Notes: generated from the letters alone by a model not told the origin. A stretch of 64,000 bases of DNA from Minisyncoccota bacterium (GCA_020628915.1 JAHDEI010000003.1:1859-65858), one strand, 5' to 3'; shown: positions 10,774 to 49,485, numbered from the stretch's first letter. Numbers and translations are program-made.

Positions 10774-10778
10774 ATGTG

Positions 10779-10849
10779 TGCGGGTGGGGAGAATCGAACT
10801 CCCGTCCTCTGCTTGGAAGGCAGATATTCTACCACTAAACTACACCCGC
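10779..10849 (-). tRNA. tRNA-Gly (anticodon TCC). The 3-prime CCA is not encoded.
   Basis: Reverse complement reads GCGGGTGTAGTTTAGTGGTAGAATATCTGCCTTCCAAGCAGAGGACGGGAGTTCGATTCTCCCCACCCGCA. It folds as a cloverleaf with an anticodon loop CUUCCAA and a T-arm GTTCGATTC. Confidence 0.85.
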
Positions 10850-10974: not shown

Positions 10975-12099
10975 ATGAAGAATCTTACTATAGCTTCAAA
11001 ATCAGAAAGCAAGAGTATCATCAATAACGATGGAATTCTTGTTGGCGAGATTATTCTCGATTATCGAGCACAAACCAAAACAGTGCTTGTGTGCGGCCCT
11101 GCTTCGACCGAAGAGCGATTAGCAATCTTGCGATTAGCGACCTCACATGCTTGTCAGTATTTAGTGGATCGTCAAACCTTTGCGTTTGGGGGTCTTATTA
11201 CTGTTAATCATGCAGATCGGTCTTTAACCCGTGCAGATTCAGAGCGTCTGATGGACTTCGCAAGAATTCCACCTCAGATTGCTTCTGCAAGCGAGGAAGT
11301 GCTCATCCAGCAGCTTTCTGAATTTTCGATTAAGGTATTGGATTTAGTGCATGAGTCATTTGTTGACGCAATGAATGAGATTTTTATATCTCAGCCTGGT
11401 TGTCAATGGGAGCTTCTTAATAAAGGAACCTGGCGAAATGATTTAGTGCATGTGAAATTAACTGCTCCTAAATCTCAAAAGTTTACATTTTGGACCGCTG
11501 CTGATAAGCCACGACCCGAAGGAGCGTTTGACCTGCATCTTGTTCCAGATTATCATCCAGTGATGAAGGACAAAGAAAGTTCGCATATGATTAATGGAGC
11601 CACTAATGCTCTCATTAGGTCAGATGTGATCGACTCAGTCTATGCCCCTGATGATTCAAGAACATCAGATGAATCTTTTGGCACGACCTGGAATCATGTT
11701 GAACATCCTTTTTATGCAACTGGAAAAACTTTTGAACTAACGGTTGATACGAGCCATGCTCGGACACAGTCAGGGATAGAAGAGCTTCAAATATTTCTGG
11801 CTTCAGTGTTAGGCGGAGATTCCTATGTTTGTGTTTCTGGCGGTTTCCGTGCTCCTATGAAGTGTGCACATAATCGTTTGTTAGAGATAGGTCGCCTTAA
11901 TGATTCACCTTGGCCGCAGGCCTCTCGTGATCATCGCAAAGGGCATGTTGCACGCGGCTCTGAAGAAAAGTGTGTCTGGGAATACCGCACCTTACAAGAA
12001 GAAGGAGCCCTTGATAAAGCCTATGTTCCAGATTGGTTTTTAAAAGAGGACTGGCTTGGAATATACGAAACCGCAGAAGTTCAACCTGGACTTTTTTAG
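10975..12099 (+). CDS. Hypothetical protein (375 aa).
   Basis: A TATAAT -10 element at 10932-10937 and an AGGAAAGAAG ribosome-binding site before the ATG at 10975. The track start 10918 is upstream of the promoter. No motif I recognise. Confidence 0.5.
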   Translation: MKNLTIASKSESKSIINNDGILVGEIILDYRAQTKTVLVCGPASTEERLAILRLATSHACQYLVDRQTFAFGGLITVNHADRSLTRADSERLMDFARIPPQIASASEEVLIQQLSEFSIKVLDLVHESFVDAMNEIFISQPGCQWELLNKGTWRNDLVHVKLTAPKSQKFTFWTAADKPRPEGAFDLHLVPDYHPVMKDKESSHMINGATNALIRSDVIDSVYAPDDSRTSDESFGTTWNHVEHPFYATGKTFELTVDTSHARTQSGIEELQIFLASVLGGDSYVCVSGGFRAPMKCAHNRLLEIGRLNDSPWPQASRDHRKGHVARGSEEKCVWEYRTLQEEGALDKAYVPDWFLKEDWLGIYETAEVQPGLF

Positions 12100-12106
12100 C
12101 GTATTT

Positions 12107-12141
12107 AGCTCGACATGCAACTTGTGTGTCGAGCTTTTTTG
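12107..12141 (+). terminator. Rho-independent terminator.
   Basis: agctcgaca-tgcaacttgtg-tgtcgagct-ttttt. Confidence 0.6.
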
Positions 12142-12155
12142 TTACAATCACAATC

Positions 12156-12959
12156 ATGAAAAAGAAAGCAGCATTGGTTTTGTCTGGCGGAGTCTCACTC
12201 GGGCTAGCACATTTAGGGGTAGTAAAAGTTTTGCAAGATGCAGAATATGAATTTGATGCCATTTACGGTGTGTCCGCTGGGTCAATCGTTGGGGCGGGTA
12301 TCGCCGCTGGAATGAATACAGATGAGATCTATGATGCGTATATTAATGCAGACTTTGTCGGATTTGGAAAAGACGTCTCAAAGATGAACACCGGACTGTT
12401 GCGAGGCGAGAGAATCAGAAACTATTTTAATGAAGTCTTTGAAAATAAAACTATTGACCAGTTACAGGTACGCTTTGTTGCAGGGGCAACGGATTTTGAC
12501 CGAGGAGAATTTATCACAATTGAAAAAGGGTTGGTGGGGGATGCACTGCGATGTTCCAGTGGACTACCCATGATCTTTGAGCCTTTTTTTCATCCTGAAT
12601 ACAACAAATATCTTGCAGACGGCGGGCTTACACAAAATCTACCTCTCAAGCAGGCTGTAGTAGAATACAAAGGAGACACCATTATCGCCGTGAATGTACA
12701 TTCACTGGACCCTCTGCCAAAAGATTTTCATAAAAAGAAATTATGGGGACTCAAAAAAGACGTAGTGAAATATCTTCTTCATTCTTTTAACATCATGATG
12801 AATAGCCAGTGGATTGATATCACTGATCCACGCGTCCAATTAATTGAGCCAGATTTGTCTCAATTTAATTTTTTGGCAATCAGAGAAAAAACCATGAAAG
12901 AAATTATTGAAAAAGGAGAAAAGTCTGCACTTGAACACTTAGCTAAATTAGAAAATTAA
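12156..12959 (+). CDS. Patatin-like phospholipase.
   Basis: Oxyanion GGVSLGLAHLGVVKVL and the serine lipase motif GVSAGSIVGA (GxSxG), with a later DGG catalytic Asp motif (LADGGLTQN). The track ORF 12033.. is an upstream extension overlapping the terminator. Confidence 0.75.
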   Translation: MKKKAALVLSGGVSLGLAHLGVVKVLQDAEYEFDAIYGVSAGSIVGAGIAAGMNTDEIYDAYINADFVGFGKDVSKMNTGLLRGERIRNYFNEVFENKTIDQLQVRFVAGATDFDRGEFITIEKGLVGDALRCSSGLPMIFEPFFHPEYNKYLADGGLTQNLPLKQAVVEYKGDTIIAVNVHSLDPLPKDFHKKKLWGLKKDVVKYLLHSFNIMMNSQWIDITDPRVQLIEPDLSQFNFLAIREKTMKEIIEKGEKSALEHLAKLEN

Positions 12960-13019
12960 TTTGACTGTATATCAAATATATAGTATTTTAAAAGCACATC
13001 AATTTTAGGGAGAAACGAT

Positions 13020-13463
13020 ATGAAAAAATTGATCCTTGCTCTTTTTGCAGCCACAGCATTAGCGGGATGTGATACTTACATGCTGCAAGGAGATTATGAA
13101 TGTGATAATTCCGTCGTGACCGGTCAGGTTGTAAATACAATCAACCAAAACTTAAAGAAAATTAACCAAGAGAAAAAGGCATTTTATCTTGAGCGTTCAC
13201 CAGGTCAGGTTGTCTACATCGAAACAGAAGACAGCGAACTGACTGAGTTGAATGATTCATACTACTTTACTACAGTAAAAGTTTGTGAAGCAATTGGCGA
13301 TTGTGCACCTAACCAAAACCTGGACGCATGCGTCTTCATTGAATCAGAGCTGCAGGGTTACACGCCGCGCTTCTGGACAGATTACGACGATGGGGTTGTG
13401 TCTGCGATGAGACAATTTATGACGAAAGATATTCGGTATCTTGTGCCAAAGCACAATTATTGA
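13020..13463 (+). CDS. Lipoprotein, hypothetical.
   Basis: Signal peptide with a lipobox, MKKLILALFAATALAGC. A terminator-like hairpin follows at 13473-13500. Confidence 0.55.
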   Translation: MKKLILALFAATALAGCDTYMLQGDYECDNSVVTGQVVNTINQNLKKINQEKKAFYLERSPGQVVYIETEDSELTELNDSYYFTTVKVCEAIGDCAPNQNLDACVFIESELQGYTPRFWTDYDDGVVSAMRQFMTKDIRYLVPKHNY

Positions 13464-13513
13464 AAAACAATAAAGCATTCGAATTAGAGTGCTTTTTATT
13501 TATAAAATGAATT

Positions 13514-13541
13514 TGACTTATTAACAAATAAATTGTAAATT
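13514..13541 (+). promoter_or_regulatory. Promoter that carries a conserved spacer motif (TTGACTtATTAACAAATAAAT) also found at 15525.
   Basis: TTGACT at 13514-13519, a 16-nt spacer containing ATTAACAAATAAAT, then TAAATT as the -10 element. Confidence 0.45.
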
Positions 13542-13570
13542 TATCTTTAGAAATTTTAGAGGAGAAAAAC

Positions 13571-15460
13571 ATGATTATTCCTATTACACAGGAAGATCTT
13601 AGTGTGCATCTTGAAAAAGCACAAAAGCTTATCAGCGACACCCGGTTTAACGGAGTGACTCTGGAAGATGTACTTGGTTCTTTGACAGACAATCAACCTT
13701 TTAATTCAGTTCCTGATCAAAGACTAATCCAGTCGGTATTACGAGGAGCACAAATTGCCCTTGAGGTGGCGCGACGCTATCATGCCGAGTCAGGTCTAGA
13801 TGAATTACATACAAGACCGAAACGAACGAGCACAATAAGGCAAGAATATTCACAAAAACTCAAGACTTCATCATCGATTTCTGGATTTGTATTTTCAAGT
13901 TACATTTTGGCGACTCTAGCAGAGCATGTTGACCATACTACTGCTGGTGAGATCAAATTAGACATCAGTGATTTGCCTTCGGGGGGCCCTTTTGAGACTC
14001 TTGTTGGTCTCATGACAGTCCTTGGTCAGGCGGTAAAATCGCTCTCACACGACGATCGTAAACCAACAGAAATTGCATATGCCTATTTCCGTCAGGTGGC
14101 AGAGTTGATCAAAGACTCTCACGAGGATCTGAAATATACTCGACCATTTGTTGATCATACATTTCAGTATGAAGAATCAGATTTTACGATCAATGGTTTT
14201 ACTGTCGATACCGTGATGTTGCGACCAAAGGTTTCTTTCAGACGTTTCGACATGGACAAGATCGTCAGTAATCGTCGTGCAAAAAACCAAACGGTGCGAA
14301 CGATTGATCACATGCTTTGCTACGATTTTCAGACCGGGAAAAATCCAGTCTTGGAATTGGGCGGCTTTGCTAGTCTCAGTATCATGGAATCAGAGCCGGG
14401 TTCTGGCAAGACATTGCTAGAGCGAGCAGGCAACACCATGTTTGTAGACAAAGCATCAGCTGTAGGTGTTCCACATCAAGTGGTTGCATTTACTGCGGAA
14501 GAAATTCTGAGCTCATATCAAGCAAAGTCTGGCGAACAAATGCGGGCGAGATTTGATCTTATTAATAATGCGCAACTTTTGACCCGGGCAACGATGGACG
14601 ATGCTGATCAGTTAGTTCTGGATCGTGGTTCCAGCGAAAGTAGTGAGGCAACACAAGGGGCAGTCAGCGTAGCGCTGACTCAACTAGACGGTGTCTTTTC
14701 TCAAAGAAATGGGAACTGGACACTCACCCTTTTGACGAACTTATTGCACCGTATTGATCCAGCAATAGTGTCTCGTGCAGACAATATTGTTTCAATGCCG
14801 GGCCCTGAGACCAAAGAAGACATGATGGATTTGGCAAAAATCTTGATTGGTGACGATTTTGTTGATTCAGGCATTGCTGATCCTGAGGGGTACGAATACT
14901 TTGCTACGCAAAAAATTCAAAGCCTTTCGGGCGGCAAGGATACGTACGCCAAACCAAAACATCCAGTGATTCTCGAGGCCTTTGAGGAAGCTTTGAGGTT
15001 ATCCGGATTTGGTCCAGACGAACTCATTACATTTATTGGCAACTGGTTTGTTGCAATTAAAGAGAGGCATTCGTCATTTCAAGGCCGAAATATCCAAAAG
15101 ATATTTGGTTCTGCCAAACGTCGTACAATGGATTTTGATTTCCCATCCGATCTATTTTCTGACCGAAAGCATTTTATTGATTACGGTTATGACAAGCGTC
15201 TGGCAATGATCAAAGAGTGGCGGAAAGAAAACATGAAAGGACAAAGCTATACGGAAATTATCATTGAAGAAGCTTGTCATCATCTCGACACCATGATGAA
15301 CATTAGTGAAAATCAATTCAGTAAGGACGTCGAAGAGGCTACGTATCGTATGCGCGTTAATGAACAGGCTCAGAGAAATAGTTTTTCGGATGATGAATTG
15401 AAAGAAACGTACGAATTTCTTAAAGAAAAGTTCGAGAAAGATGAGCACGCTCCAGCGTGA
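13571..15460 (+). CDS. AAA+ family ATPase domain protein (629 aa), with unknown N- and C-terminal regions.
   Basis: Walker A ESEPGSGKT, Walker B-like DDADQLVLD, and a sensor region LTNLLHRIDPAIVSRAD that resembles the classical AAA motif TNRPD.LDPAL.RPGRFD. A GGAG ribosome-binding site is present. Confidence 0.55.
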   Translation: MIIPITQEDLSVHLEKAQKLISDTRFNGVTLEDVLGSLTDNQPFNSVPDQRLIQSVLRGAQIALEVARRYHAESGLDELHTRPKRTSTIRQEYSQKLKTSSSISGFVFSSYILATLAEHVDHTTAGEIKLDISDLPSGGPFETLVGLMTVLGQAVKSLSHDDRKPTEIAYAYFRQVAELIKDSHEDLKYTRPFVDHTFQYEESDFTINGFTVDTVMLRPKVSFRRFDMDKIVSNRRAKNQTVRTIDHMLCYDFQTGKNPVLELGGFASLSIMESEPGSGKTLLERAGNTMFVDKASAVGVPHQVVAFTAEEILSSYQAKSGEQMRARFDLINNAQLLTRATMDDADQLVLDRGSSESSEATQGAVSVALTQLDGVFSQRNGNWTLTLLTNLLHRIDPAIVSRADNIVSMPGPETKEDMMDLAKILIGDDFVDSGIADPEGYEYFATQKIQSLSGGKDTYAKPKHPVILEAFEEALRLSGFGPDELITFIGNWFVAIKERHSSFQGRNIQKIFGSAKRRTMDFDFPSDLFSDRKHFIDYGYDKRLAMIKEWRKENMKGQSYTEIIIEEACHHLDTMMNISENQFSKDVEEATYRMRVNEQAQRNSFSDDELKETYEFLKEKFEKDEHAPA

Positions 15461-15473
15461 AGATTGTTTGATT

Positions 15474-15502
15474 TAAACCCCCATTACATGGGGGTTTTTT
15501 CT
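15474..15502 (+). terminator. Rho-independent terminator.
   Basis: aaaccccca-ttaca-tgggggttttttc. Confidence 0.8.
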
Positions 15503-15524: not shown

Positions 15525-15553
15525 TTGACTCATTAACAAATAAATGCTATTAT
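15525..15553 (+). promoter_or_regulatory. Promoter of the 9-gene operon. It carries the same spacer motif as the promoter at 13514.
   Basis: TTGACT at 15525-15530, a 17-nt spacer cATTAACAAATAAATgc, then TATTAT at 15548-15553. Confidence 0.5.
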
Positions 15554-15624
15554 TAATTCAATTCGCACGTTTTGTGTGAAGGAACGTTCTTTGACAACAA
15601 AATAGGAGAAGAAAGGAACAAAAA

Positions 15625-17397
15625 ATGAAAAACTCAATTTTCAAAACAGTGGGAGTTGCACTTGCAACACTCACGTGCTTTTTAGCTGTGTCTCCGGCTG
15701 CACACGCAGGTGTGCAAACAGAGACACCAAAACCCTTGTCTGAGCAATCGATGCCGACAACGGGAAACTACAATACCGATAACGTACAGCGCATGCCGGT
15801 TATTGCATGGGGTGCTGATTTGGCAACCATTCATGCTAACGGTGGTGCAACCACAGCGAGTGGATCGTATATGGATCGTGCAGGGCTTGATATAAAGCTC
15901 TATCGCCAAGACGACTTTGCTCAACAGGTTCGGGATTTTAAATCCGGCAAAACAAATTACCTGCGAGGAACCGCCGGTATGATTTTTGCAGCCTCAGATG
16001 TGTTATGTGATGACAACCGGACATGTCCGGAAGTCATTTATAATATGTCACGTTCAGCCGGCGGTGACGCTTTGGTTGTGCGAGGTGGAATAAATAACAT
16101 CTCAGATTTGCGTGGAAAGACTATTGGTCTCCAGCTATACGGTCCCCACCAGAGGCTTCTGACAGAAGTCCTGGCGTTGGGTAATCTCAAGCCAAGTGAT
16201 GTAAATGTTAAATGGTATCGGGATCTTGACGTAAATGGTCAACGCTCAGCAAGTCATGCTTTCGAAGCAGGCGAAGTTGACGCGGCATTCGTGATTATTC
16301 CGGATGCGTTACTGTTCACTGAGGGTGATGCAGCAATTCGTGGAGCAAAAACGGTCTTTTCGACCAAGTCTCTCGACTATATCATTTATGATTTGATTGC
16401 TGTTCGGCCTGATTATGCAAAAGCGCAACCTGAAAAGATCGCCGCGGTTACTTCAGCTCTGCTGAAAGCCAACGAAGATCTTCGAAGTGTCATCTCGAAC
16501 AAAAATAGTTCGGGTTATGACAAGATTGTGCGCGATGGAGCAGACCTGCTTTTAGGAGCCGGTAATGATCCAGAGATGCAGGCAATTGTAGCCGACATGT
16601 ATATGTTTGATGCCAAAATGCAGGGATGGACAGGGAATGTTCGATTCCTTACAGGTGAGTCAGATGGTAAACGCGAGTCAATTTCTCTGCAGTCAATTGC
16701 AGGACCAACTGGCCAAACATTTGCTCAACTGAATTTGGTTGAAAACGCATCTGCGCCTAAGCAGGTAACTGTATACAATCATAACTGGAAAGCATTGCAG
16801 TCGGGTCTTTCTGAGAAGTTTGGTGTTACCGCACCAACACTCAATAAGACTGTGGTTACTCGTGTTATTCAAAATCGTTCTAAGAGCGGCACATTGGATA
16901 ATGACAAAATCGTAGAATTTCCTATCTTTTTTGGAGCTAACCAAACAGAATTTTCGGCAAACCAGTATGCATCTGATTTTGACCGCGTGATGGAACTTGC
17001 CTCTCGAGGCAGTGGTATTGCGATTGTCATGGAGGGTCATTCTGATCCAGTCGAATACTTGCGTAAAAAACACAAAGACGGCGTTGCGCCATCTCAGTAT
17101 AAGCAAATTCAGCAAGCTGCTAAGAATCTTTCTCGGGAGCGTGCAGAATCTGTGAAGCAAGCAATTCTGGACTATGCAAAATCACAGGGTGTTCGGATTT
17201 CATTCGAAGACGCAGTGATTATTGGTCACGGCGTGGCAAAGCCTGTTAATGGCACATGCCAGTGGGACTATAATGGTCGTTCGGTTTCTGATCCGTGTAA
17301 GCCTGAAAACCAAACTATGTTTGAGCAAAATCGTCGAGTCGAGTTTTCACTCGTTGTAGTGGAAGCCGAATCTGACGTATTTATCGATGACTTTTAG
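15625..17397 (+). CDS. Exported protein. It fuses a periplasmic substrate-binding-like domain (NMT1/SsuA/TauA-like) to a C-terminal OmpA/MotB peptidoglycan-binding domain.
   Basis: Signal peptide ending AHA. The middle region resembles SsuA-type binding proteins. The C-terminus (FFGANQTEFSANQYASDFDRVMELASRGSGIAIVMEGHSDPVEY...NRRVEFSLV) matches the OmpA_C pattern. Confidence 0.6.
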   Translation: MKNSIFKTVGVALATLTCFLAVSPAAHAGVQTETPKPLSEQSMPTTGNYNTDNVQRMPVIAWGADLATIHANGGATTASGSYMDRAGLDIKLYRQDDFAQQVRDFKSGKTNYLRGTAGMIFAASDVLCDDNRTCPEVIYNMSRSAGGDALVVRGGINNISDLRGKTIGLQLYGPHQRLLTEVLALGNLKPSDVNVKWYRDLDVNGQRSASHAFEAGEVDAAFVIIPDALLFTEGDAAIRGAKTVFSTKSLDYIIYDLIAVRPDYAKAQPEKIAAVTSALLKANEDLRSVISNKNSSGYDKIVRDGADLLLGAGNDPEMQAIVADMYMFDAKMQGWTGNVRFLTGESDGKRESISLQSIAGPTGQTFAQLNLVENASAPKQVTVYNHNWKALQSGLSEKFGVTAPTLNKTVVTRVIQNRSKSGTLDNDKIVEFPIFFGANQTEFSANQYASDFDRVMELASRGSGIAIVMEGHSDPVEYLRKKHKDGVAPSQYKQIQQAAKNLSRERAESVKQAILDYAKSQGVRISFEDAVIIGHGVAKPVNGTCQWDYNGRSVSDPCKPENQTMFEQNRRVEFSLVVVEAESDVFIDDF

Positions 17398-17422
17398 GTT
17401 AATGGAATTACGGAGAAAAAAC

Positions 17423-18193
17423 ATGAAACGTTATACATCATTTGCAATTATTGCATCACTTGCTCTTGGAGCCTGTGAAGCAAAGCAAGTTGAAGGAACG
17501 CCACCCAGTCCGTCATACTCGGAAGCCCCAGTTATTGATACTGGTATTCCGATTTGGCCTTCGGTTATCGAAGATGCACAGCTTACATCAGGACCGGACT
17601 TTAGTTTATCTAAAGATCCATTCACGACAAATATCGTTGTTGCCGTTGATACAAGCGGCTCAATGGGTGGTGAGTGTTCTGGTTCCCGGAAGATTGATTC
17701 TGCAAAAACTGCTATTCGCACGTTTTTGCGATCACTTCCTGCTGATGCAGCAATCGGAGTCGTCGAGTTTGGTAACTCAACCGGTGTGGTTGAACCTTTA
17801 GCTTTTGACAACATCGAGCTCGTCTCGAGTTCTGTTAATGCCTTGAGTTCTGGTGGGGGAACCCCCATGACGAATGGCATTCAGATTTCATACAACGAAT
17901 TAGTTCGTCGTGGGGTCAAACAGCAAGGGTACGGGTATTATCATTTGATAGTGCTCGGTGATGGTGCTCCAGATAACACTCGGTCTACCGTTAAGGAATT
18001 AGATCGTATTGCAATGGAAACACCTATCAATGTCCACACGATTGGTTTTTGTGCTGATTTGGGTGTCCTCGACCGTGAGGGCGTCCAATACCGCGAAGCC
18101 AGCAATGCAAAAGACTTGGTTTCCGCATTTTCTGCGGTCCTTGCTGAATCAACGGTAACATTTACCGGCAGCGGAGGATTCCAAGACTTTTAA
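17423..18193 (+). CDS. von Willebrand factor type A (vWA) domain lipoprotein.
   Basis: Lipobox LALGAC. MIDAS motif VVAVDTSGSMGG...GGGTPMTNG...VLGDGAPDN. GGAG ribosome-binding site before the ATG at 17423. The track start 17387 overlaps the upstream gene. Confidence 0.7.
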   Translation: MKRYTSFAIIASLALGACEAKQVEGTPPSPSYSEAPVIDTGIPIWPSVIEDAQLTSGPDFSLSKDPFTTNIVVAVDTSGSMGGECSGSRKIDSAKTAIRTFLRSLPADAAIGVVEFGNSTGVVEPLAFDNIELVSSSVNALSSGGGTPMTNGIQISYNELVRRGVKQQGYGYYHLIVLGDGAPDNTRSTVKELDRIAMETPINVHTIGFCADLGVLDREGVQYREASNAKDLVSAFSAVLAESTVTFTGSGGFQDF

Positions 18194-18251
18194 TTCAGTG
18201 AATTGGATTCGGGCTGTGCCCGAATCCGCCACAGACATTAGGAGAAACAAA

Positions 18252-19832
18252 ATGAAACCTATCCATATTTTTGGTGTGGTTATATTTGCCCTCATTATTG
18301 TCTCTGGTGTGATATTTGGTGCTCGTCTCTTTTTAGAAGATGAACATCGAGGAGCAACCAGCGACAGAGGGAAAACTAAAACCGAATTTGTTGTCGGGAT
18401 GGACTCGTGGCCTGGTTACATGCCACTTTGTTCAGACAGATTGCAACACCAATTATATAAATCTGAGAAGATCGACATACGATGCGTCTCAGATGGCGGT
18501 AATTATGCAGAGCGCATGGAAAAATTGGCCTCAGGTGAATTAGATTTTGCGGTTACAACTGTAGACGCACATCTTTTGACTGGGCCCCAAGAAAAATTTC
18601 CAGGCGCAATTGTCATGGTTATCGATCAATCAAAAGGTGGTGACGCCATTGTGGCGTGGCCAGACAAAGTTAACGGTATTAACGATCTTGGAACAACTGA
18701 TGGTTGGAAAGTGGCGTTTACGCCTGATTCCCCATCACATCAACTACTGCGAAGCGTTGGAAACGATTTCGGTATTTCAACACTCTTATCTGACGGAAAC
18801 TGGAAAGTAGAAGCAGATGGAGCAGGTGATGCATTACAAAAATTTCTCAAGCGAGAAGTGGATGTAGCAGTTGTTTGGGAGCCACATGTCACAGCAGCAG
18901 TTGCCGCTGGAGCAAAGGTGATTCATTCATCTGATGCAACAGACAAGGTAATTGTGGACGTACTATTGGTCAATCGTGACTTAGTACGCCCGAGCACGAA
19001 AGAATACGCCCAAGTCCAATCGGTCTTGCGCGAATATTTTTCTGCTTTGCGCGATATTCGTGATGACAGCAACATTATGTTGAAAGAAGCGCGATCATTC
19101 GTTAAGACATATGGCGGTCAAAGACTCTCTGATTCAGAACTCCAATCGATGCTCGATGGTGTTCAATGGATTAATCTTCGTGATAACGGAGAGTCTTGGT
19201 TTGGTATCGGGGGTGAATCCCCATACTACGGGCTTCGTGAAGCACATGAGTTTGCTCTGACTATTATTCGGTCTGAAAAAGGTGAAGATTTTCTTTCCCT
19301 CTTCAGAGCTGAACAAGTCATCCTGAGTGATCTTATATCTACCCTCTATAAAGATGGTGGATATCTTGGTGAGGCAGGCACAACCGAAACTGATCCATTA
19401 CGGAAAGCTTTTGGTGGCCTGACGGAAACTGAGTGGAATCGTCTACGGACGGTTGCATCTCTAAAGTCACGCCCTGTTATCTTTAGATCAGGAACAACTG
19501 ATTTAGATGAGGGCTCGCGTCGTGCACTTGCTGAGGCCATGGAAGATTTTAAGCGTTATCCAAAATCTCGCTTAGAACTTCGTATTGGATATCGTACTGG
19601 GGCAACCCAAGACGAGACACAAGTCGCACAAGATCGTTCTCAAGAGCGAGCACTAGCGGTACAAAACTACATCATTGATACATTTGGGGTCGACCCAGAT
19701 CGTATTCGTGTGTATGTACCTGCACCACAAGACCTGCGTTCTATGATTCGGCAACGAAGTGGCGAAAGTCGCCGGGCCTATATGGCTCGTCTGAGGCAGG
19801 TGGAACTGGTGTTAAAAGCAACACCACTGTAA
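18252..19832 (+). CDS. Membrane-anchored paralog. It has a substrate-binding-like domain and a C-terminal OmpA-like domain.
   Basis: N-terminal TM helix, an SsuA-like segment (FVVGMDSWPGYMPL...DFAVTTVDAHLL), and an OmpA-like C-terminus (RPVIFRSGTTDLDEGSRRALAEA...RALAVQNYIIDTFGVDPDRIRV). Start at the AGGAGA-preceded ATG at 18252. Confidence 0.55.
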   Translation: MKPIHIFGVVIFALIIVSGVIFGARLFLEDEHRGATSDRGKTKTEFVVGMDSWPGYMPLCSDRLQHQLYKSEKIDIRCVSDGGNYAERMEKLASGELDFAVTTVDAHLLTGPQEKFPGAIVMVIDQSKGGDAIVAWPDKVNGINDLGTTDGWKVAFTPDSPSHQLLRSVGNDFGISTLLSDGNWKVEADGAGDALQKFLKREVDVAVVWEPHVTAAVAAGAKVIHSSDATDKVIVDVLLVNRDLVRPSTKEYAQVQSVLREYFSALRDIRDDSNIMLKEARSFVKTYGGQRLSDSELQSMLDGVQWINLRDNGESWFGIGGESPYYGLREAHEFALTIIRSEKGEDFLSLFRAEQVILSDLISTLYKDGGYLGEAGTTETDPLRKAFGGLTETEWNRLRTVASLKSRPVIFRSGTTDLDEGSRRALAEAMEDFKRYPKSRLELRIGYRTGATQDETQVAQDRSQERALAVQNYIIDTFGVDPDRIRVYVPAPQDLRSMIRQRSGESRRAYMARLRQVELVLKATPL

Positions 19833-19848
19833 AGAAAGGAGAGTGTGT

Positions 19849-20640
19849 ATGTCGAAAAATCTTTCGACAAACCCATTTTCACAACGTTCAATCAGTAAGC
19901 ATGTCAAAACAAAGGCAACAAATAATGTCGTTACCCTTGGTTCCGGAGCATTTGCTTTGGGAATTGTGGGGATAACGGCTGCTGCCACCGGAGGGTTACC
20001 TCTCTGGGCATTGCTTGCTGCTGGCGGTTGTGGATTGGTGAGTGTCGGTAGTCTAACTAACGACCTCACTGCCAGAAAGCATTCGATTGTCAGTCGGTAT
20101 TTGCAAGAGGCTAAACAGTTTCTTGCAGAGAAAGCTGATCGTCATGCACAATCTCTCTTGGTTCGCGCGGAAGACTCAGGTAATGAAAAAGCTATACAGC
20201 AGATTCAAGAACTAGAGACTTCCTTCCGTGATTTTCGAGAATTAGTAGACGGCAAGTTACAAGACTCAGGTTTTGCACATGCTCGTTTTATTGGTTCTGT
20301 TGAACAAGCTCGTGAAGAAGCACTTTCAATGATCGAAGAAATTCTCGATAGCCTTGATGCTATTGAGAGTATCCCCGATGACTTAGGTGATCGGGTTGAT
20401 TCGTCAAATGATCGTGTCTCTGAGCTACGACGAGAGAGGTTGGGACATAAAGACAGGGTATATGCTCGAATTGACGAGCTATATGCCGGGGTCGAACACT
20501 GCCTGACAAAAATTTCAGAGTTGTCTATCAAAATTCCCCGCATAGGGAAGGGTGATAATTCTGATGCTGTATATCAGCGCAGTTTAAGAGAGTTAGAGAG
20601 TCTAGGCTCTCTTGCACAAACAATCAACAGAGAAACATAG
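19849..20640 (+). CDS. Membrane protein with two N-terminal TM helices and a coiled-coil C-terminal domain. It may be the XpaC-like partner of TelA.
   Basis: TM region VVTLGSGAFALGIVGITAAATGGLPLWALLAAGGCGLVSV, then a helical acidic domain. AAGGAGAG ribosome-binding site. It lies immediately upstream of the TelA-like gene, as xpaC lies upstream of yaaN in Bacillus. The homology is only inferred. Confidence 0.35.
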   Translation: MSKNLSTNPFSQRSISKHVKTKATNNVVTLGSGAFALGIVGITAAATGGLPLWALLAAGGCGLVSVGSLTNDLTARKHSIVSRYLQEAKQFLAEKADRHAQSLLVRAEDSGNEKAIQQIQELETSFRDFRELVDGKLQDSGFAHARFIGSVEQAREEALSMIEEILDSLDAIESIPDDLGDRVDSSNDRVSELRRERLGHKDRVYARIDELYAGVEHCLTKISELSIKIPRIGKGDNSDAVYQRSLRELESLGSLAQTINRET

Positions 20641-20651
20641 AAAGGTATATT

Positions 20652-21875
20652 ATGGTTTCTACAGCAATGGCCGCCGATGTGGCGGCTCAGGAAATCCAAT
20701 CGGTTCAGCCCAAGAAATTTACACTTGATGTGAATAGAATTGAGTCTGAAACAAAGCCGGTTGTGGTTGCCGATCCGGAAATGCATGAACGTGCAAACGG
20801 TTTGATTGAGTCGCTTTTGGCGATGGATCTTGATGCAGATCAAGAGGCAATCAAAACCGAAGTCTCACGTGCTGGCTCTAATTTGTTGCGAGGTGGAGGA
20901 CGCAAAAGCGAACTTCTCAGTGCAAAAATGAAAGAGCTAATGCAAGACAAAACTGGTGGCGAAAACGTTGCCAACGATTTGATTGCACTTCGAGATGAGG
21001 TTTCAAAACTTGATCCGGGCCGTGTGAATTTTTCGCCGGGCGGGATCGGTCGATTTGTCGAAAAAATGCCAATTATTGGTGGGAGAGTGAAAAAATATCT
21101 CAACCAGTATGAACGCGGTGATGTGGTTATTAACCAAATCGCTGACGGCCTGCGGGCTGGCCAAGCCAGACTCGAAAATGACAATGTGATCTTGCGTGAT
21201 GACCAGGCTGAATGGCGGATGGCCTCTATTGCCTTGAAAAAGGAAGCAGAGTTCCTCAAGTTAGTCAGCGATCAGTTGCAGTCTCGTATTGCAACTATGG
21301 AAAATCAAGAACATAAAGGTTTTCTGCAACGTGAAGTGGTATTCCCACTGATGAAGACTCACAGTCGGCTTTTAACTGCAGCAGCAGTTGATCAGCAGGG
21401 TGTTTTGTCCGCAGAAGTCCTGGTTCGTGCAAACACGGCACTAATCGAAGGCATCGAAGATGCGCTCTACGTGACCATCCGTGCACTACGCATCGGTGTC
21501 ACTCTTGCCGTCGCTCTTGCTCACCAGAAAAAAGTTCTAGGTGGGCTTGAAAAGACGCAAGACATGACCAACAAAATGCTGGAACGTAACGCAGACATGC
21601 TTGGTACTCAAGCAGCTGACGTTTATAAACGTGCTAGTGGTGTTGGTGTCAATGTTGATACATTGCAAGCAGCAATGGACAAATCCATTGCGGCCATCAA
21701 GTCTTTGGATGATTTCCGTATGGAAGCCATTCGAACAATGTCAGGCCAGATCAAGCAACTTGAGCAGGTTACTGACAATGGTGAAAAAGCAATTCGTGAG
21801 ATGGAAGCAGGCAACAAGATTGCCGATGACGTCTCTACAGCAGGCTTCTTTGCATATGCGCAGAAGGCTGCCTAA
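20652..21875 (+). CDS. TelA/KlaA (toxic anion resistance) family protein.
   Basis: Length of 407 aa and motif series (LRDEVSKLDPGRVNF...GRVKKYLNQYERGDVVINQIADGLRAGQARLENDNVILRDDQAEWRMASIALKKEAEFLKLVSDQL) that follow the TelA family pattern LDP...KY...Y...Q..I..I...L......L..DN..L......LW. Confidence 0.6.
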   Translation: MVSTAMAADVAAQEIQSVQPKKFTLDVNRIESETKPVVVADPEMHERANGLIESLLAMDLDADQEAIKTEVSRAGSNLLRGGGRKSELLSAKMKELMQDKTGGENVANDLIALRDEVSKLDPGRVNFSPGGIGRFVEKMPIIGGRVKKYLNQYERGDVVINQIADGLRAGQARLENDNVILRDDQAEWRMASIALKKEAEFLKLVSDQLQSRIATMENQEHKGFLQREVVFPLMKTHSRLLTAAAVDQQGVLSAEVLVRANTALIEGIEDALYVTIRALRIGVTLAVALAHQKKVLGGLEKTQDMTNKMLERNADMLGTQAADVYKRASGVGVNVDTLQAAMDKSIAAIKSLDDFRMEAIRTMSGQIKQLEQVTDNGEKAIREMEAGNKIADDVSTAGFFAYAQKAA

Positions 21876-21941
21876 CACTCTATTCTGCAGCCTTCGTGGC
21901 TGCCGAAACCTCATTACGTAATTTTTGAGAAAGGAAAAAAA

Positions 21942-23066
21942 ATGAAACGTAATTTTCTGTTGACTACAACAATGGCGATCACTCTAGCACTTGGTGCTTG
22001 TGGTGATTCTTCGAAACCGGCAACTCAAACTCCGGCCCCTGCTGCGACATCGTCAAATGTTGTGATGGGTAGTGGAGATACTTGTCGTTTCGCTTGGTCG
22101 CATTACACCGGCTGGGAACCAGTCTACATGATGCAATCAGAAGGGATCGCAGAACGAATGGGCGCGAAATATAATGTAAATATTACGATTTCGCCGCCAA
22201 TGGACTATGTCGAATCGTTGACGCAGTTCGCTGCGGGAACATTTGATTTTGTGACTTCAACCGGCATGGACGCATTGACGATTCCTGCCGCCGGAGGCAC
22301 AGTCACTGACTATATCGTTGCAGGTGATTTTTCAAATGGCAACGACGCAATCGTGGTAATCGATCCAGCCGGCTCGATCCAATCTGTTGCTGACCTGAAA
22401 GGCAAGGAGGTTATCCTTGTTGAAGGATCAGTGTCAGACTTCATGCTTTCGAAAGCTTTGGATGATTATGGCTTATCTGGGTCAGATGTTGTTCGCAAGA
22501 ACACAAGTGATGCAGATATCGGTTCTATTCTGGCTACTGCTTCTGACGGAACAGTTGCTGTGACATGGAACCCGATCGTACTACAAACACTCGAAGCTCG
22601 GAAAAATGATGGCGCCCGAAGTGTCTTTGATTCATCACAGACACCTGGCCTTATCATGGATGGTATTCTGGCAAACGATGGTGCCACTGAAGCCTGTCGT
22701 TATGCAGTTACTGCAGCCTGGTATGAAGCCGTCTCTCTGATTCCGCAGTCGCGCTCAGCAAATGCTGATCCGGCGGCATATGAAAGAATGGCCCGCTTTG
22801 CCTCTGGTAATGCGGCAAACTCAGTTGAGCTCTTTGATGCCCAGCTGGGGACGACCCGGATGTTTTACACACCAATGGACGGTATTTCTGTAATGGAAAG
22901 CCAGCAGCTAAAAGACAACATGGAATTCATCCGTGAGTTCGCAGCTGGTTCTGGGTTGATTGACAGCGCAGACGTCGTCGGTGTTTCGTTCCCGGACGGT
23001 TCCGTTCAAGGGGGTTCAAACGTAAAATTACGTTTTACTTCCAAATATATGAACGGCGTTCGTTAA
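21942..23066 (+). CDS. ABC transporter substrate-binding lipoprotein, NitT/TauT (nitrate / sulfonate / bicarbonate, SsuA-like) family.
   Basis: Lipobox LALGAC followed by the SsuA/NMT1-like sequence GWEPVYMMQSEGIAERMG...FDFVTSTGMDAL. It is genetically linked to the permease and ATPase of the same family. Confidence 0.7.
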   Translation: MKRNFLLTTTMAITLALGACGDSSKPATQTPAPAATSSNVVMGSGDTCRFAWSHYTGWEPVYMMQSEGIAERMGAKYNVNITISPPMDYVESLTQFAAGTFDFVTSTGMDALTIPAAGGTVTDYIVAGDFSNGNDAIVVIDPAGSIQSVADLKGKEVILVEGSVSDFMLSKALDDYGLSGSDVVRKNTSDADIGSILATASDGTVAVTWNPIVLQTLEARKNDGARSVFDSSQTPGLIMDGILANDGATEACRYAVTAAWYEAVSLIPQSRSANADPAAYERMARFASGNAANSVELFDAQLGTTRMFYTPMDGISVMESQQLKDNMEFIREFAAGSGLIDSADVVGVSFPDGSVQGGSNVKLRFTSKYMNGVR

Positions 23067-23100
23067 TTTTTCTCCTATGAGGACTCCCTTTCTGGGGGTC

Positions 23101-23155
23101 CTCAGCGTCACAGGATGTGTGTCCTGTCTGATGAGTCCAAAAGGACGAAACGCAG
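23101..23155 (+). ncRNA. Type III hammerhead self-cleaving ribozyme (copy 1).
   Basis: Helix III 5-prime strand and GUC cleavage triplet at 23104-23109 (predicted cleavage after C23109). Helix I hairpin acagga-ugugug-uccugu (23110-23127). CUGAUGA (23128-23134). Stem II gucc-aaaa-ggac (23135-23146). GAAA (23147-23150). Helix III 3-prime strand cgcag (23151-23155). A 10-bp hairpin (gaggacuccc...gggggucctc) lies immediately upstream. Confidence 0.75.
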
Positions 23156-23197
23156 TTGTTCATTTACATACAATATACGACAATGTTTTTAATGTAT

Positions 23198-23252
23198 GTG
23201 AAACGATATTGTGTAGGGCAGATATGGTCTTCACAATATCGTTTCACATGAG
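23198..23252 (+). repeat. Perfect 17-bp inverted repeat with a 20-nt loop, downstream of the ribozyme in the 5-prime UTR of the permease gene.
   Basis: atgtgaaacgatattgtg ...(20 nt)... cacaatatcgtttcacat. Confidence 0.7.
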
Positions 23253-23292
23253 GCGATTTTAAAACTCGCCTTAACGATAGAGAGGAGTTAAT

Positions 23293-24123
23293 ATGAGAAA
23301 AAAATCTATCTTTGGTCTTTATGGCCACATTAAACAGCCGTGGAATTTCCTGTTAGGGGTAATTCCAATTGCATTTTTATTCATAGGATTTCAGGTTTTG
23401 AGCTGGAATTATCTTGCTGATAATCCTGACGGAAAACTATTCCGTGGGTGGGAAAACGTATTTGCAGCTTTGCATCGGATGGCAACAGTCAAAGATGTTA
23501 TGTCTGGTGAATATTTGTTATGGAGCGACATGTTCGTGACATTAAAGCGCCTACTCGTCGGGTTAGGGTTAGCAGTTTTCTCTGCTGCTTTGCTCGGGGT
23601 TCATATGGCGTTCTTCCCATGGATTCGGGCAATCTTTTTGCCGTTTATCCGTCTTGTTTCCAATCTGCCGGTCATCATTGTGATCTCAATTGTCTTGCTA
23701 CTAGCAGGTACAGGAGAGTTCTTTAAGGTGGCGATGGTATTTCTTGGAACTGTGTTTTTGTTGAGTCGTGACATCTTTCGATCAGCTGATGCTGTATCAA
23801 GACAACGGGTTACCAAAACATTGACACTTGGTGCATCGCCGCTTGGTGTTATTTACCGAGTGATGCTGCCTAGGTTGGCACCAGATATCATTGCCGCAAT
23901 CAGACTTGCTTTGCCAGGCGCATGGATTTATGCATTGGTGAGCGAGATGACGATTTCTACTGATGGTCTTGGCTATCGAGTCGCAGTCATGCGTCGGCAC
24001 ATGGAAATGGACGTCATTATTGGGTACGTATTGGTGGTTTCACTACTGGCGATACTTATCGATTTTGTCTTAAAGACAATTTCTGAGAAACGTTATCCAT
24101 GGCACAACCCGGAGGGTAAATAA
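23293..24123 (+). CDS. ABC transporter permease, NitT/TauT (SsuC-like) family.
   Basis: Six TM helices. EAA-like loop (GASPLGVIYRVMLPRLAPDIIAAIRLAL). AGAGGAG ribosome-binding site. Confidence 0.75.
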   Translation: MRKKSIFGLYGHIKQPWNFLLGVIPIAFLFIGFQVLSWNYLADNPDGKLFRGWENVFAALHRMATVKDVMSGEYLLWSDMFVTLKRLLVGLGLAVFSAALLGVHMAFFPWIRAIFLPFIRLVSNLPVIIVISIVLLLAGTGEFFKVAMVFLGTVFLLSRDIFRSADAVSRQRVTKTLTLGASPLGVIYRVMLPRLAPDIIAAIRLALPGAWIYALVSEMTISTDGLGYRVAVMRRHMEMDVIIGYVLVVSLLAILIDFVLKTISEKRYPWHNPEGK

Positions 24124-24125
24124 CA

Positions 24126-25079
24126 ATGACCACCACAGATAAACTTGAAAAATTGATCGATGATTTAGATCAAAAAACAGTTGGTTCACCTAGAGAATAT
24201 GTTTTACATCTATTAGATGTACACAAATCTTATGACGATGGTCGTGTCCAGGTTTTACATGATCTTGATCTCAAAATTACCGAAGGCGAATTTGTAACTC
24301 TTGTTGGTCCATCTGGATGCGGCAAGTCAACACTTTTGCGAGCGGTTTTGGGTGAAGAAGATGTTACCGAAGGCACTGCGACAATTCGTGGTTCTGCAAT
24401 TAAGACGCCGGATGTGACACGAGGAATTGTCTACCAAGACCATTCTTTGTTCCCGCATTTAACAGCATGGCAAAATGTCATGATGGGTCCGAAATTGCAG
24501 CAGTCGTGGTGGAAATTCAAAAAAGTTTCTGAGGCAGACAAGCAGTTGGCACGAGAATACCTCGAGCGAGCAGGTATGTCTGAACACCTCGACAAGAAAC
24601 CATATGAGCTTTCCGGCGGTCAAAAACAACGTATCGCGATCATTCAAGCATTGATGGCTAAACCAGAAATTTTATTGATGGACGAACCATTTTCTGCGCT
24701 AGATGAGACAACTCGTGAAGATATGCAGCTGCTGCTGCTTGAGCTATATGAACAGACTGGCATGACCATTTTGTTTATCACTCATGATCTGACTGAGGCG
24801 TTATATCTTGGAACCAGAAACATTGCTTTGTCCCAATACTATGTTGACGGACGAGGTGATGAAACAAAAGGGGCCAGGATAGTTTCTGATATTCGGCTGC
24901 GTGAAATTGGTACAGCGATTTCTCCAAGTGAGAAGTCGTCACCGAAATTACATGCATTGAAAGATAAAATCCGTGCTGAGGCATTTGATCCTGACCATAT
25001 TAGACATGCAAAGGACTTTACGTTGACTCATCCGGATTCATTTCAAACACTAACCGAGCGCGAAGCCGCTGTCGTATAG
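24126..25079 (+). CDS. ABC transporter ATP-binding protein, NitT/TauT (SsuB-like) family.
   Basis: Walker A GPSGCGKST, signature LSGGQKQRIAI, Walker B LLMDEPFSALD. It overlaps the permease stop by the sequence ATAACAATGA. Confidence 0.85.
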   Translation: MTTTDKLEKLIDDLDQKTVGSPREYVLHLLDVHKSYDDGRVQVLHDLDLKITEGEFVTLVGPSGCGKSTLLRAVLGEEDVTEGTATIRGSAIKTPDVTRGIVYQDHSLFPHLTAWQNVMMGPKLQQSWWKFKKVSEADKQLAREYLERAGMSEHLDKKPYELSGGQKQRIAIIQALMAKPEILLMDEPFSALDETTREDMQLLLLELYEQTGMTILFITHDLTEALYLGTRNIALSQYYVDGRGDETKGARIVSDIRLREIGTAISPSEKSSPKLHALKDKIRAEAFDPDHIRHAKDFTLTHPDSFQTLTEREAAVV

Positions 25080-25085
25080 AACCAT

Positions 25086-25110
25086 AAACCCCACCTTGGT
25101 GGGGTTTTTT
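25086..25110 (+). terminator. Rho-independent terminator of the 9-gene operon.
   Basis: aaacccca-ccttgg-tggggtttttt. Confidence 0.8.
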
Positions 25111-25153: not shown

Positions 25154-25228
25154 TGGTGCACCCGCCAGGACTCGAACCTGGAATGACGGTTCCGAAGACC
25201 GTAGTGATATCCATTTCACCACAGGTGC
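25154..25228 (-). tRNA. tRNA-Arg (anticodon TCG). The 3-prime CCA is encoded.
   Basis: Reverse complement reads GCACCTGTGGTGAAATGGATATCACTACGGTCTTCGGAACCGTCATTCCAGGTTCGAGTCCTGGCGGGTGCACCA. Anticodon stem ACGGT/ACCGT, loop CUUCGGA, T-arm GGTTCGAGTCC. Confidence 0.8.
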
Positions 25229-40631: not shown

Positions 40632-41561
40632 ATGAAGTACTCCAAAGAAGAAGAAATTTACGACCGAGTAAAACGAAAGGAAAAGACAAGTGCCTTTCTT
40701 AGACCTCTAATGAAATTTTTATTGTGGGCAGCTTTTGTCTGTATTTGTCTTTGGGGGCTCTACTACTGGTTCTCTTCTTTTAAGAACACTAAAACATATA
40801 CCCCTAGTGAGGAAACTGTGTTGACTGTTGCTGAGCAAAGAGTGCTGGATTCAGATGGAGATGGACTCGAAGATTGGCAAGAAGATTTATATGGCACTAG
40901 TAATAAATTGCGTGACACTGATGGAGATGGTTTGTTGGACGGTCAAGAGGTTGCACTGGGTTATGACCCAAATTATTACGGAGAAGGTCTTCTTGATGGA
41001 GATGTTTTGCCGCAAAAAAAAGTTTTTGAGGACTATGTTTTTGAGTCTACAAATTCACAAAGTTCATTTAATTTTGATCCTGTGACTAATAGCTTTTTAC
41101 AAAATTCTGGAGACGATGAGGTAAAAAAAATCATCAAACAGTCAGTGAATGTGCTTGGTGCGATCATTGGAAAACACTCGTTTGCAGACATGCAGAATGT
41201 AGATTTATTTGGCTCTCTGTTTGTTAAAGATCTGACAACTTCACAAATCTCTGATTTACGTTCTGTGGTTGATGCATACCGTACTATTGCTGAGGAGATT
41301 GGGTCACTTAATTATCATGTCACAGTTGACATGGAGGCTCGGAGACTGCAACAAAGTTACGAAAATGTTGCGGGGTTACTCGAAAAGCTGATTGACGGAC
41401 AATCAATAAGTTCCCAGCAATACCAAGACCTTCTATTGGCATACACAACAGCGGTTACCGAGCAGCAAAATGCATTAGTTGCAGTCCATAGGATCGTGAC
41501 CGCACATGGCATTAAATATATTTCTACTGAACCAGGCTCTTTCTTTCTCTTTGAATTGTAG
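40632..41561 (+). CDS. Membrane-anchored protein with thrombospondin-type-3-like calcium-binding repeats (DxDxDG). Paralog A.
   Basis: N-terminal TM helix, then DSDGDGLEDWQED and DTDGDGLLDGQEVALGYDP motifs. Confidence 0.5.
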   Translation: MKYSKEEEIYDRVKRKEKTSAFLRPLMKFLLWAAFVCICLWGLYYWFSSFKNTKTYTPSEETVLTVAEQRVLDSDGDGLEDWQEDLYGTSNKLRDTDGDGLLDGQEVALGYDPNYYGEGLLDGDVLPQKKVFEDYVFESTNSQSSFNFDPVTNSFLQNSGDDEVKKIIKQSVNVLGAIIGKHSFADMQNVDLFGSLFVKDLTTSQISDLRSVVDAYRTIAEEIGSLNYHVTVDMEARRLQQSYENVAGLLEKLIDGQSISSQQYQDLLLAYTTAVTEQQNALVAVHRIVTAHGIKYISTEPGSFFLFEL

Positions 41562-47699: not shown

Positions 47700-47735
47700 C
47701 TCTTAACCAGTTTCGGACCCAGTCAAATGGGTCCG

Positions 47736-47788
47736 TTCTGTCTGAAGATGTGTATCTTCACTGATGAGTCCAAAAGGACGAAACAGAA
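47736..47788 (+). ncRNA. Type III hammerhead self-cleaving ribozyme (copy 2).
   Basis: Helix III 5-prime strand uucug (47736-47740), then U47741 and the cleavage nucleotide C47742 (GUC). Perfect 7-bp helix I ugaagau-gugu-aucuuca (47743-47760). CUGAUGA (47761-47767). Stem II gucc-aaaa-ggac (47768-47779). GAAA (47780-47783). Helix III 3-prime strand cagaa (47784-47788), fully complementary. Confidence 0.8.
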
Positions 47789-47941
47789 TGTTCTTTGAAA
47801 TCATAAACAAGTATAGAGTTTATGAATCGGCCCCCATGTACATTGATGTGTATATAGGAGCCGATTCAATGTAGTCCGATCGGCATCGCCCAATCGGGCT
47901 ACTCAAAACTTATATTTAGCTTAGAAAAGAAGGAGACGCAC

Positions 47942-49428: not shown

Positions 49429-49485
49429 ATCTCACAATTATTGTTAATTGTATTGATTATAAATAAATTTTTAAAACAAAATTTT

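Follow-up and report, generated by a model that had tools for sequence, protein, structure and literature searches.

A conserved operon linking predicted wall-tethered binding proteins, a vWA lipoprotein and TelA to a NitT/TauT-type importer in a Patescibacteria genome

Introduction

Why should one bacterial operon join two solute-binding proteins with OmpA-like domains, a vWA lipoprotein, a small membrane protein and a TelA-family protein to an ATP-binding cassette (ABC) importer, and what might such an assembly do? The question is raised by a locus on the + strand, at 15.5-25.1 kb, of a 64,000-nt stretch of DNA from a Minisyncoccota bacterium (GCA_020628915.1, JAHDEI010000003.1:1859-65858), the whole of which was analysed and is here called the window. 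A preliminary description, made from the sequence alone, counted nine genes in the operon, did not know the combination as a described system, and suggested an envelope-stress or nutrient-scavenging complex. Here, the protein-coding genes of the operon, named g1 to g8 in order of transcription, were examined together with their relatives in other genomes.

TelA is a widespread protein linked to bacterial tolerance of tellurite, bacteriocins and daptomycin, by a mechanism that is still described as unknown (PMC12791056). The gene cassette described below puts TelA in a fixed partnership with predicted ligand-binding receptors, a wall anchor and an importer.

Results

The operon is a single transcription unit of co-oriented genes, enclosed by one promoter and one terminator. 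The promoter-like site, of the sigma-70 type (15525..15553, + strand; TTGACT-17-TATTAT with an extended -10 TG), has 10 of 12 consensus matches, and the intrinsic terminator (25086..25107, + strand), a strong one, is a stem-loop, AAACCCCACCTTGGTGGGGTTT, followed by a T-run (TTTCTTT). Both signals were thus located where the preliminary description had put them, at 15525 and 25086, and its account of the spacing also held: the gaps between consecutive genes from g1 to g8 are 25, 58, 16, 11, 66, 226 and 2 nt, and only that between g6 and g7 (23067-23292), which holds a predicted hammerhead ribozyme, is large. Start codons of g2 (17423), g3 (18252) and g4 (19849) were picked via ribosome-binding sites. 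The count of nine genes has to be reduced to eight protein genes. The only candidate for the ninth, a 61-aa open reading frame (ORF) at 23077-23262, was rejected: it matches no protein family and overlaps both the ribozyme and a long hairpin.

Two checks proposed in the preliminary description were carried out on these genes. Searches with hidden Markov models (HMMs) found binding, OmpA, vWA and TelA domains and no unrelated folds, while inspection of gene neighbourhoods found the genes co-located in dozens of unrelated genomes, which gives no indication of a chance adjacency. With the proposed folds recovered and the genes kept together in this way, the cassette is almost certainly a real, conserved and functional system. 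What had seemed an undescribed combination is a widespread one, with relatives in at least 558 GTDB species genomes (one genome per species; 558 confirmed among 599 matched stretches). A study by Anantharaman, Iyer and Aravind from 2012 reportedly proposed, on computational grounds, membrane-associated sensory complexes formed by TelA and TerB, possibly with periplasmic binding-protein-II (PBP-II) and OmpA domains. Full-text literature searches returned no other description of the cassette and no experiment on it.

Conservation was surveyed at 80 loci, whose ORFs were searched with the window proteins and then with family HMMs, and co-occurrence was counted at the 48 loci whose sequence extends 2.5 kb or more upstream and 8.5 kb or more downstream of g1. 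At these, g2 was present in all 48, g3 in 47, a positional orthologue of g4 in 43, TelA (g5) in 36 (37 including the divergent TelA of locus L046), g6 in 35, and g7 and g8 in 38 each; all seven partners of g1 occurred together at 28 of the 48. The constant part of the cassette is g1-g2-g3, usually plus g4. Full-length g1 homologues are numerous, the best being 47-53% identical. The most frequent gene order is that of the window, g1 to g8, and it was also seen on metagenome scaffolds; circular permutations occur (g7-g8-g1..g6 and g5..g8-g1..g4), in which the importer stays beside the core.

Carriers include Gammaproteobacteria, Alphaproteobacteria, Desulfobacterota (among them cable bacteria), Nitrospinota, Acidobacteriota, Myxococcota and Bdellovibrionota, as well as four metagenome-assembled genomes (MAGs) labelled as Candidate Phyla Radiation (CPR), giving an overall spread of at least seven phyla. 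Several are cultured and tractable: Rheinheimera baltica DSM 14885, Zooshikella harenae, Pleionea sediminis, an Arenicella strain and Vibrio alfacsensis. In the last, the whole cassette lies on pSEA2 (NZ_AP019851.1, ∼234.6-244.4 kb), a 306-kb MOBH mobilizable plasmid, where its PGAP names are generic. Related plasmids in V. rotiferianus and V. penaeicida also carry matching TelA genes. The preliminary description had suggested tethered receptors in a cell without an outer membrane. Diderm Proteobacteria, Desulfobacterota and Nitrospinota make up most of the carriers, which means that tethering to the wall is no adaptation to a missing outer membrane.

Some loci depart in detail from the common layout. 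At L022 and L076, and at L050 by first-pass calls, the g4 position is taken by a longer ORF with g6 directly behind it, and at L002 a tricorn-type protease lies 3' of g4, with the importer divergent and upstream. The Bacterioplanoides locus (L001) has the cassette without a nearby importer, followed by a small protein (weak SHOCT match, 16329-16808) and a GGDEF protein. Two CPR-labelled loci are interrupted, L078 by reverse-strand ORFs at 12845-14446 (533 aa) and 19896-20885 (329 aa), between g2/g3 and g6/g7, and L067 by a gap at 12451-13660 between g2 and g3; these interruptions may be mobile elements. A TelA homologue with 26% identity is encoded on the archaeal plasmid pNP174 of Methanosphaera sp. 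ISO3-F5, behind the gene for a hypothetical protein of 410 aa, and no other cassette genes were found on that plasmid.

The host of the window is a CPR/Patescibacteria bacterium and probably lacks an outer membrane. Most of the named matches listed for its PcrA are to Patescibacteria: this PcrA is 62% identical to that of a ‘Patescibacteria group’ genome, followed, among the matches listed, by Pacebacteria, Campbellbacteria, Parcubacteria and Zambryskibacteria. The window is chromosomal, as it encodes a CCA-adding enzyme, MiaA, KsgA, PcrA, an IMPDH-like gene and two tRNAs. The operon gave no match in a phage collection. The operon genes exceed the other window genes in GC content (0.457 vs 0.414, p = 0.0002) and in GC content at third codon positions (0.389 vs 0.338, p = 0.004). 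Their nearest relatives are on a 5-kb contig (53% identity) and in an acidobacterial MAG (49%), and the genes flanking the operon are common to no related locus, which argues against a larger conserved island. Given the GC step, the unshared flanks and the acidobacterial nearest relative, the operon looks horizontally acquired. By pairwise identities, none of the other CPR-labelled copies groups with the window; they fall with Desulfobacterota or beside a Rhodospirillaceae copy, which suggests several separate transfers into CPR, although MAG labels can be wrong. That a reduced CPR genome holds an acquired envelope and uptake system of ∼9.6 kb hints at a solute important to the symbiont.

The same GC step could be taken as the mark of an assembly chimera, in which a proteobacterial fragment was mis-joined into a CPR contig, and the gene combination as a chance adjacency. 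This explanation is largely refuted, and we give it next to no credence. The same eight genes occur together in dozens of genomes, and another CPR-labelled contig has the same GC step. A matching ribozyme copy 24 kb away in the window, identical to the operon hammerhead over a 24-nt core, makes a chimeric assembly unlikely, as do a promoter and a terminator like those of the neighbouring genes. With the best homologues at the identities given above, no recent donor is evident.

A further explanation is that the cassette belongs to the Ter/TelA type of mobile defence islands and acts against phages or colicins. Resistance to phages and colicins has a long association with TelA and ter genes, and both the signs of transfer and the location on mobilizable Vibrio megaplasmids would suit such an island. 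Against this, a search of PADLOC-DB 2.0 returned no system-specific match, the significant matches being generic ABC-ATPase ones to g8 only. There is no nuclease, NTPase-effector or abortive-infection component in the cassette, every part other than TelA is a solute-binding, transport or wall-binding protein, and the flanks of the inspected loci hold ordinary genes. A defence role is therefore very improbable.

The preliminary description had read g1 and g3 as fusions of a periplasmic binding fold with an OmpA domain, and HMM, fold and family-profile matches confirm this, with the Pfam OmpA match of g1 remaining sub-threshold. The 590-aa g1 protein (15625..17397) has a cleavable Sec signal peptide (AHA|G), a binding domain of the SsuA/TauA fold, a helical linker and an OmpA-like domain (EGHSD...NLSxxRA...NRRVE). 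The binding domain matches Pfam NMT1 (5.6e-9) and NCBIfam SsuA_fam (6e-13). An AlphaFold2 (AF2) model built with 30 homologues has a predicted local distance difference test score (pLDDT) of 88 and a predicted template modelling score (pTM) of 0.84, and its best Foldseek matches are TauA (6ssy) and SsuA (5e-15). Further structural matches are ThiY/Thi5, NrtA/CmpA and the regulatory domain of CmpC, the last a precedent for a domain of this kind acting as a regulator.

The OmpA-like domain of g1 scores 1.6e-3 (19.2 bits), under the Pfam cut-off of 27.2, and a PDB sequence search with the single g1 C-terminus gave no match. A g1-family profile of the C-terminal 170 residues does match the peptidoglycan-binding domain of A. 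baumannii OmpA (3TD3, E 5.8e-5): the EGHSD of g1 aligns with EGHTD, and NLSxxRA is also present in g1. In A. baumannii OmpA the aspartate of GH(T/S)D and the arginine of LSxxRA bind the peptide stem. From its domains, g1 is predicted to be a secreted binding protein attached to peptidoglycan.

The 526-aa g3 protein (18252..19832) has a single N-terminal transmembrane (TM) helix (residues 6-24), followed by an SsuA-like domain (SsuA_fam 7e-12, NCBIfam) and an OmpA-like domain, which exceeds the Pfam cut-off (4.4e-8, 33.8 bits) and matches PDB OmpA chains (2.4e-4). It would be a membrane-anchored paralogue of g1 with a predicted wall-binding domain. The two are distant paralogues (24% identity), as are the binding domains of g1, g3 and g6 (24-27% identity, SsuA/TauA/NrtA class), which share a W-loop and the motif S-x-G-[GN]-D-A. 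Residues invariant in 30 g1 homologues of ∼40% identity, polar and aromatic in character, are W62, G63, D65, S144, G146, D148, Q170, G173, P174 and H175. Because polar residues of the cleft type are invariant and three paralogues have been retained together, the binding domains of g1 and g3 are probably still functional in ligand binding.

The second gene, g2 (17423..18193, 256 aa), encodes an exported lipoprotein (lipobox LALGAC) with a vWA domain (Pfam VWA_2 8e-13, VWA 1.8e-9). Its metal ion-dependent adhesion site (MIDAS) motif is intact (DTSGS, GTP, GDG), and the elements D.SGSM, TP and DG are kept at 70-90% or more across 80 orthologues. This agrees with the vWA-MIDAS lipoprotein of the preliminary description.

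Taken with g1 and g3, this adhesion domain brings in a purely structural explanation. The OmpA-domain proteins and the vWA lipoprotein could fasten membrane and wall to each other, as Pal, YiaD or MotB do, in which case the binding folds would be scaffolds that have lost ligand binding and the importer an unrelated neighbour held by operon inertia. Two predicted wall-binding domains and the MotB-like layout of g3, an N-terminal TM helix with a C-terminal OmpA domain, fit such a tether along with the MIDAS domain itself. Scaffolds, however, would not be expected from the invariant cleft-type residues of the g1 homologues, nor from three paralogous binding domains kept together with one bona fide transporter partner, and the importer stays adjacent through circular permutations across phyla. 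A tether is consequently an improbable account of the cassette.

The 263-aa g4 protein (19849..20640) has two glycine-rich TM helices (∼residues 29-72) and then a helical cytoplasmic part of ∼190 aa. It had been called XpaC-like, which is apt for its architecture: a two-TM hairpin and a helical cytoplasmic domain, encoded 11 nt upstream of telA. Homology in sequence was not recovered. No match to PF10112 (XpaC) was found at E≤0.1, none to an XpaC model among eight g4 orthologues at E≤0.05, and none to XpaC in NCBIfam at E≤0.01; a word-indexed homologue search with g4 found g4 itself only. The single-sequence AF2 model is of low confidence (pLDDT 46.5) and all-helical from residue 69 on. Its neighbour g5 (20652..21875, 407 aa) is TelA, as had been claimed, and is cytoplasmic. 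It matches PF05816 almost over its full length (profile positions 32-331 of 332) with an E-value of 1.3e-44 and 153.1 bits against a cut-off of 30; a PDB sequence search gave no match.

The last three genes bear out the claim of a canonical binding protein, permease and ATPase, and, judged by their domain matches, g6-g8 are a complete type I NitT/TauT ABC importer with its own lipoprotein binding protein. The latter, g6 (21942..23066, 374 aa; lipobox LALGAC), is of the NitT/TauT type (NMT1 3.9e-8). The permease, g7 (23293..24123, 276 aa; BPD_transp_1 2e-15), is TauC- and SsuC-like, and the ATPase, g8 (24126..25079, 317 aa; ABC_tran 1.8e-33), has a Walker A motif (GPSGCGKST), an LSGGQ signature and a Walker B motif. 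The family nearest to g6 is TIGR03427, a ‘putative urea ABC transporter’ binding protein (E 3e-86; 289.5 bits, cut-off 333.9), of which g6 is a close sister and not a certified member. The orthologue on the Vibrio plasmid bears the PGAP name ‘putative urea ABC transporter substrate-binding protein’, and a PDB sequence search with g6 gave no match. Based on the similarity to TIGR03427, a small nitrogen compound (urea or guanidine) is the best guess for the ligand. In cyanobacteria, the NitT/TauT importer GimABC has been shown to bind guanidine at nanomolar affinity (PMC12704784).

Compared with shuffled controls, the 226-nt g6-g7 spacer has a far better predicted fold (z = -9.4). A 10-bp hairpin (23079..23103, + strand) stands right after the g6 stop and 5' of a predicted type III hammerhead ribozyme (23102..23156, + strand; Rfam model RF00008, core CTGATGAGTCCAAAAGGACGAAAC), and a long hairpin (23196-23251) and a short one (23252-23274) follow on the + strand before the g7 ribosome-binding site. 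The hammerhead scores 44.1 bits (E 1.8e-8 in a 501-nt local search) against an Rfam gathering score of 48.5, and carries the full core CUGAUGA...GAAA, three stems and the GUC triplet. It is predicted to cut after GUC, between 23109 and 23110, after which the 10-bp hairpin would become the 3'-terminal stem-loop of the upstream RNA. A second type III hammerhead (47735-47789, + strand) exceeds the gathering score at 51.6 bits and lies in the spacer before a gene at 47942-49135. The 24-nt core and stem II are identical between the two (core at 47761 in the second), and both have a hairpin just 5' of them; hairpin and hammerhead look like a small repeated unit between co-oriented genes. The operon copy would be a clean natural case in which to study ribozyme processing of a bacterial polycistronic mRNA, and together with the CPR host it is a local peculiarity of the operon in the window.

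Elsewhere, a search of six related loci for Rfam families, the hammerhead included, had no hit at the gathering threshold, and a strict hammerhead core pattern was absent from 81 related loci. A relaxed pattern gave scattered matches, none of them in g6-g7 spacers; the one that was checked, at L057, lies inside g6.

Discussion

Parts of the operon recall known systems. The TelA-family link and a vWA protein are common to the operon and the Ter clusters (terZABCDEF / TerY-P), to whose neighbourhoods the preliminary description had likened it. Beyond TelA this likeness does not extend: no TerB, TerC or TerD domain was found in the eight operon proteins, in a scan that did not take in every ORF of the window. 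Moreover, TerY is cytoplasmic and has a PP2C phosphatase and a Ser/Thr kinase as partners, whereas the vWA protein g2 is an exported lipoprotein without them.

The XpaC-TelA (YaaN) pair of Firmicutes (B. subtilis xpaC-yaaN, L. monocytogenes lmo1966-lmo1967 and E. faecium xpaC-telA) has a two-TM protein encoded directly upstream of TelA, as in g4-g5, and is associated with stress of the envelope and membrane (PMC12791056; PMC6811118). Phospholipid domains shift on loss of xpaC, a loss that has consequences only where telA is intact (PMC6811118). That pair, however, stands alone, without binding proteins, vWA protein, OmpA domains or importer, and g4 does not match the XpaC family. PspBC-PspA and LiaI-LiaH likewise place a small membrane protein beside a soluble all-helical one that acts at the membrane; they serve as a working analogy, with no homology shown.

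TauABC, SsuABC, NrtABCD/CmpABCD and GimABC have the same three-part make-up and fold class as g6-g8. Ordinary NitT/TauT systems have one free or lipid-anchored binding protein, whereas the operon has two more, fused to wall-binding domains, and its importer is joined to a vWA protein, a two-TM protein and TelA. The TIGR03427 family comprises urea-carboxylase-associated binding proteins, but neither a urea carboxylase nor a guanidine hydrolase is encoded next to the operon. Nothing in the operon contradicts current understanding.

An ‘envelope-stress or nutrient-scavenging complex’ remains a fair description of what is a real, envelope-associated system. For the specific mechanism we tentatively favour a module that captures and senses solutes in the wall zone, coupled to uptake and to a membrane-protection arm formed by TelA. 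The wall-tethered g1 and g3 would capture or sense a small polar solute there, their ligands being of the same chemical class as that of g6, most plausibly small nitrogen compounds, and g6 and the importer would take up what is captured. The vWA lipoprotein g2 may hold the outer components together via its metal site. As g3 has almost no cytoplasmic residues, an inward signal would need packing of TM helices with g4, and the single helix of g3 may pack against the g4 hairpin. Solute occupancy or envelope strain could in this way reach the g4-TelA pair at the cytoplasmic face, which might protect or reorganise the membrane, or restrain the importer once the solute becomes toxic. By cutting the mRNA between g6 and g7, the hammerhead would give separate RNA stabilities to the part encoding the sensors and binding protein and to that encoding permease and ATPase.

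A stronger form of the capture-and-sense reading, and a more doubtful one, is that the cassette is a trans-envelope machine in which wall-fixed, ligand-gated receptors control both the importer and a membrane-remodelling arm formed by TelA. TelA has lacked a known mechanism for about thirty years; if this reading were true, the protein would gain a defined input and a tractable setting. In CPR the cassette would be an acquired device for drawing a small nitrogen compound from the host surface, its expression tuned by a ribozyme.

Several observations weigh against capture and sensing coupled to uptake and TelA. The g1-g5 core occurs without a nearby importer at L004, L027 and L070, and the core with the importer occurs without TelA at L022, L050, L056 and L076 (Desulfomonilaceae and Rhodospirillaceae) and at L002 (Acidobacteriota), which indicates that the three modules can function separately. 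The g3 family does not have the conserved GHTD aspartate in its OmpA-like domain, making wall binding by g3 less certain than by g1, and g4 is poorly conserved, with no family assignment and a poor model. The contact between the TM helices of g3 and g4 is purely something that we infer. With g6 below the TIGR03427 cut-off, the substrate is a guess, and literature searches found no ligand, interaction or phenotype data for any cassette member. The hammerhead, absent from all related loci checked, is specific to the genome of the window and stands outside the general mechanism of the cassette.

The main rival reads the cassette as a stress sensor. By analogy with PstSCAB and PhoU or with BceAB and BceS, g1 and g3 would detect a harmful periplasmic solute or oxyanion and trigger a membrane defence through TelA, with the ABC transporter as co-sensor or regulator and any gain of nutrients secondary. 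TelA-linked phenotypes are all ones of tolerance, to tellurite, nisin, daptomycin and cationic peptides (PMC12791056; PMC6811118). The loci that keep g1-g5 and have no importer agree with this reading, and the fold matches include NitT/TauT binding proteins, which often bind anions (nitrate, bicarbonate, sulfonates). However, the importer is complete, of the ordinary type I uptake kind and provided with its own dedicated binding protein, the conserved set holds no kinase, transcription factor or sigma factor, and the loci without TelA retain the importer. On balance we consider a dedicated stress sensor unlikely, and prefer the coupling of capture and sensing to uptake.

Genomic surroundings

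The gene upstream of the operon has its own terminator, AAACCCCCATTACATGGGGGTTT followed by TTTCTTT, at 15475-15497, 5' of the operon promoter. It and the operon terminator (25086-25107) are near-twins that flank the operon, which could reflect a genome-wide terminator style or be the trace of an island insertion. A tRNA-Arg(TCG) gene (25154-25228, - strand) lies ∼50 nt past the operon terminator, and a tRNA-Gly(TCC) gene (10778-10849, - strand) lies ∼4.8 kb upstream of the operon; a position beside a tRNA gene would be in keeping with an island of shifted GC content that had integrated there. Directly upstream are genes for a patatin-like phospholipase (12033-12959, + strand) and a 629-aa AAA ATPase (13571-15460, + strand), neither of which is kept beside the cassette in related loci.

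Further along the window, a 937-aa protein (31016-33829, + strand) matches phrog_5156 strongly (E 8e-77) and TrwB/VirD4 coupling proteins weakly, and is probably part of a Patescibacteria type IV secretion or conjugation-like machinery. Tandem paralogues with bacterial TSP3 calcium-binding repeats (40632-41561 and 41616-42557, + strand) and a 987-aa protein with a purple-acid-phosphatase/PhoD N-terminal domain and DUF11 (49426-52389, + strand) are likely CPR cell-surface proteins.

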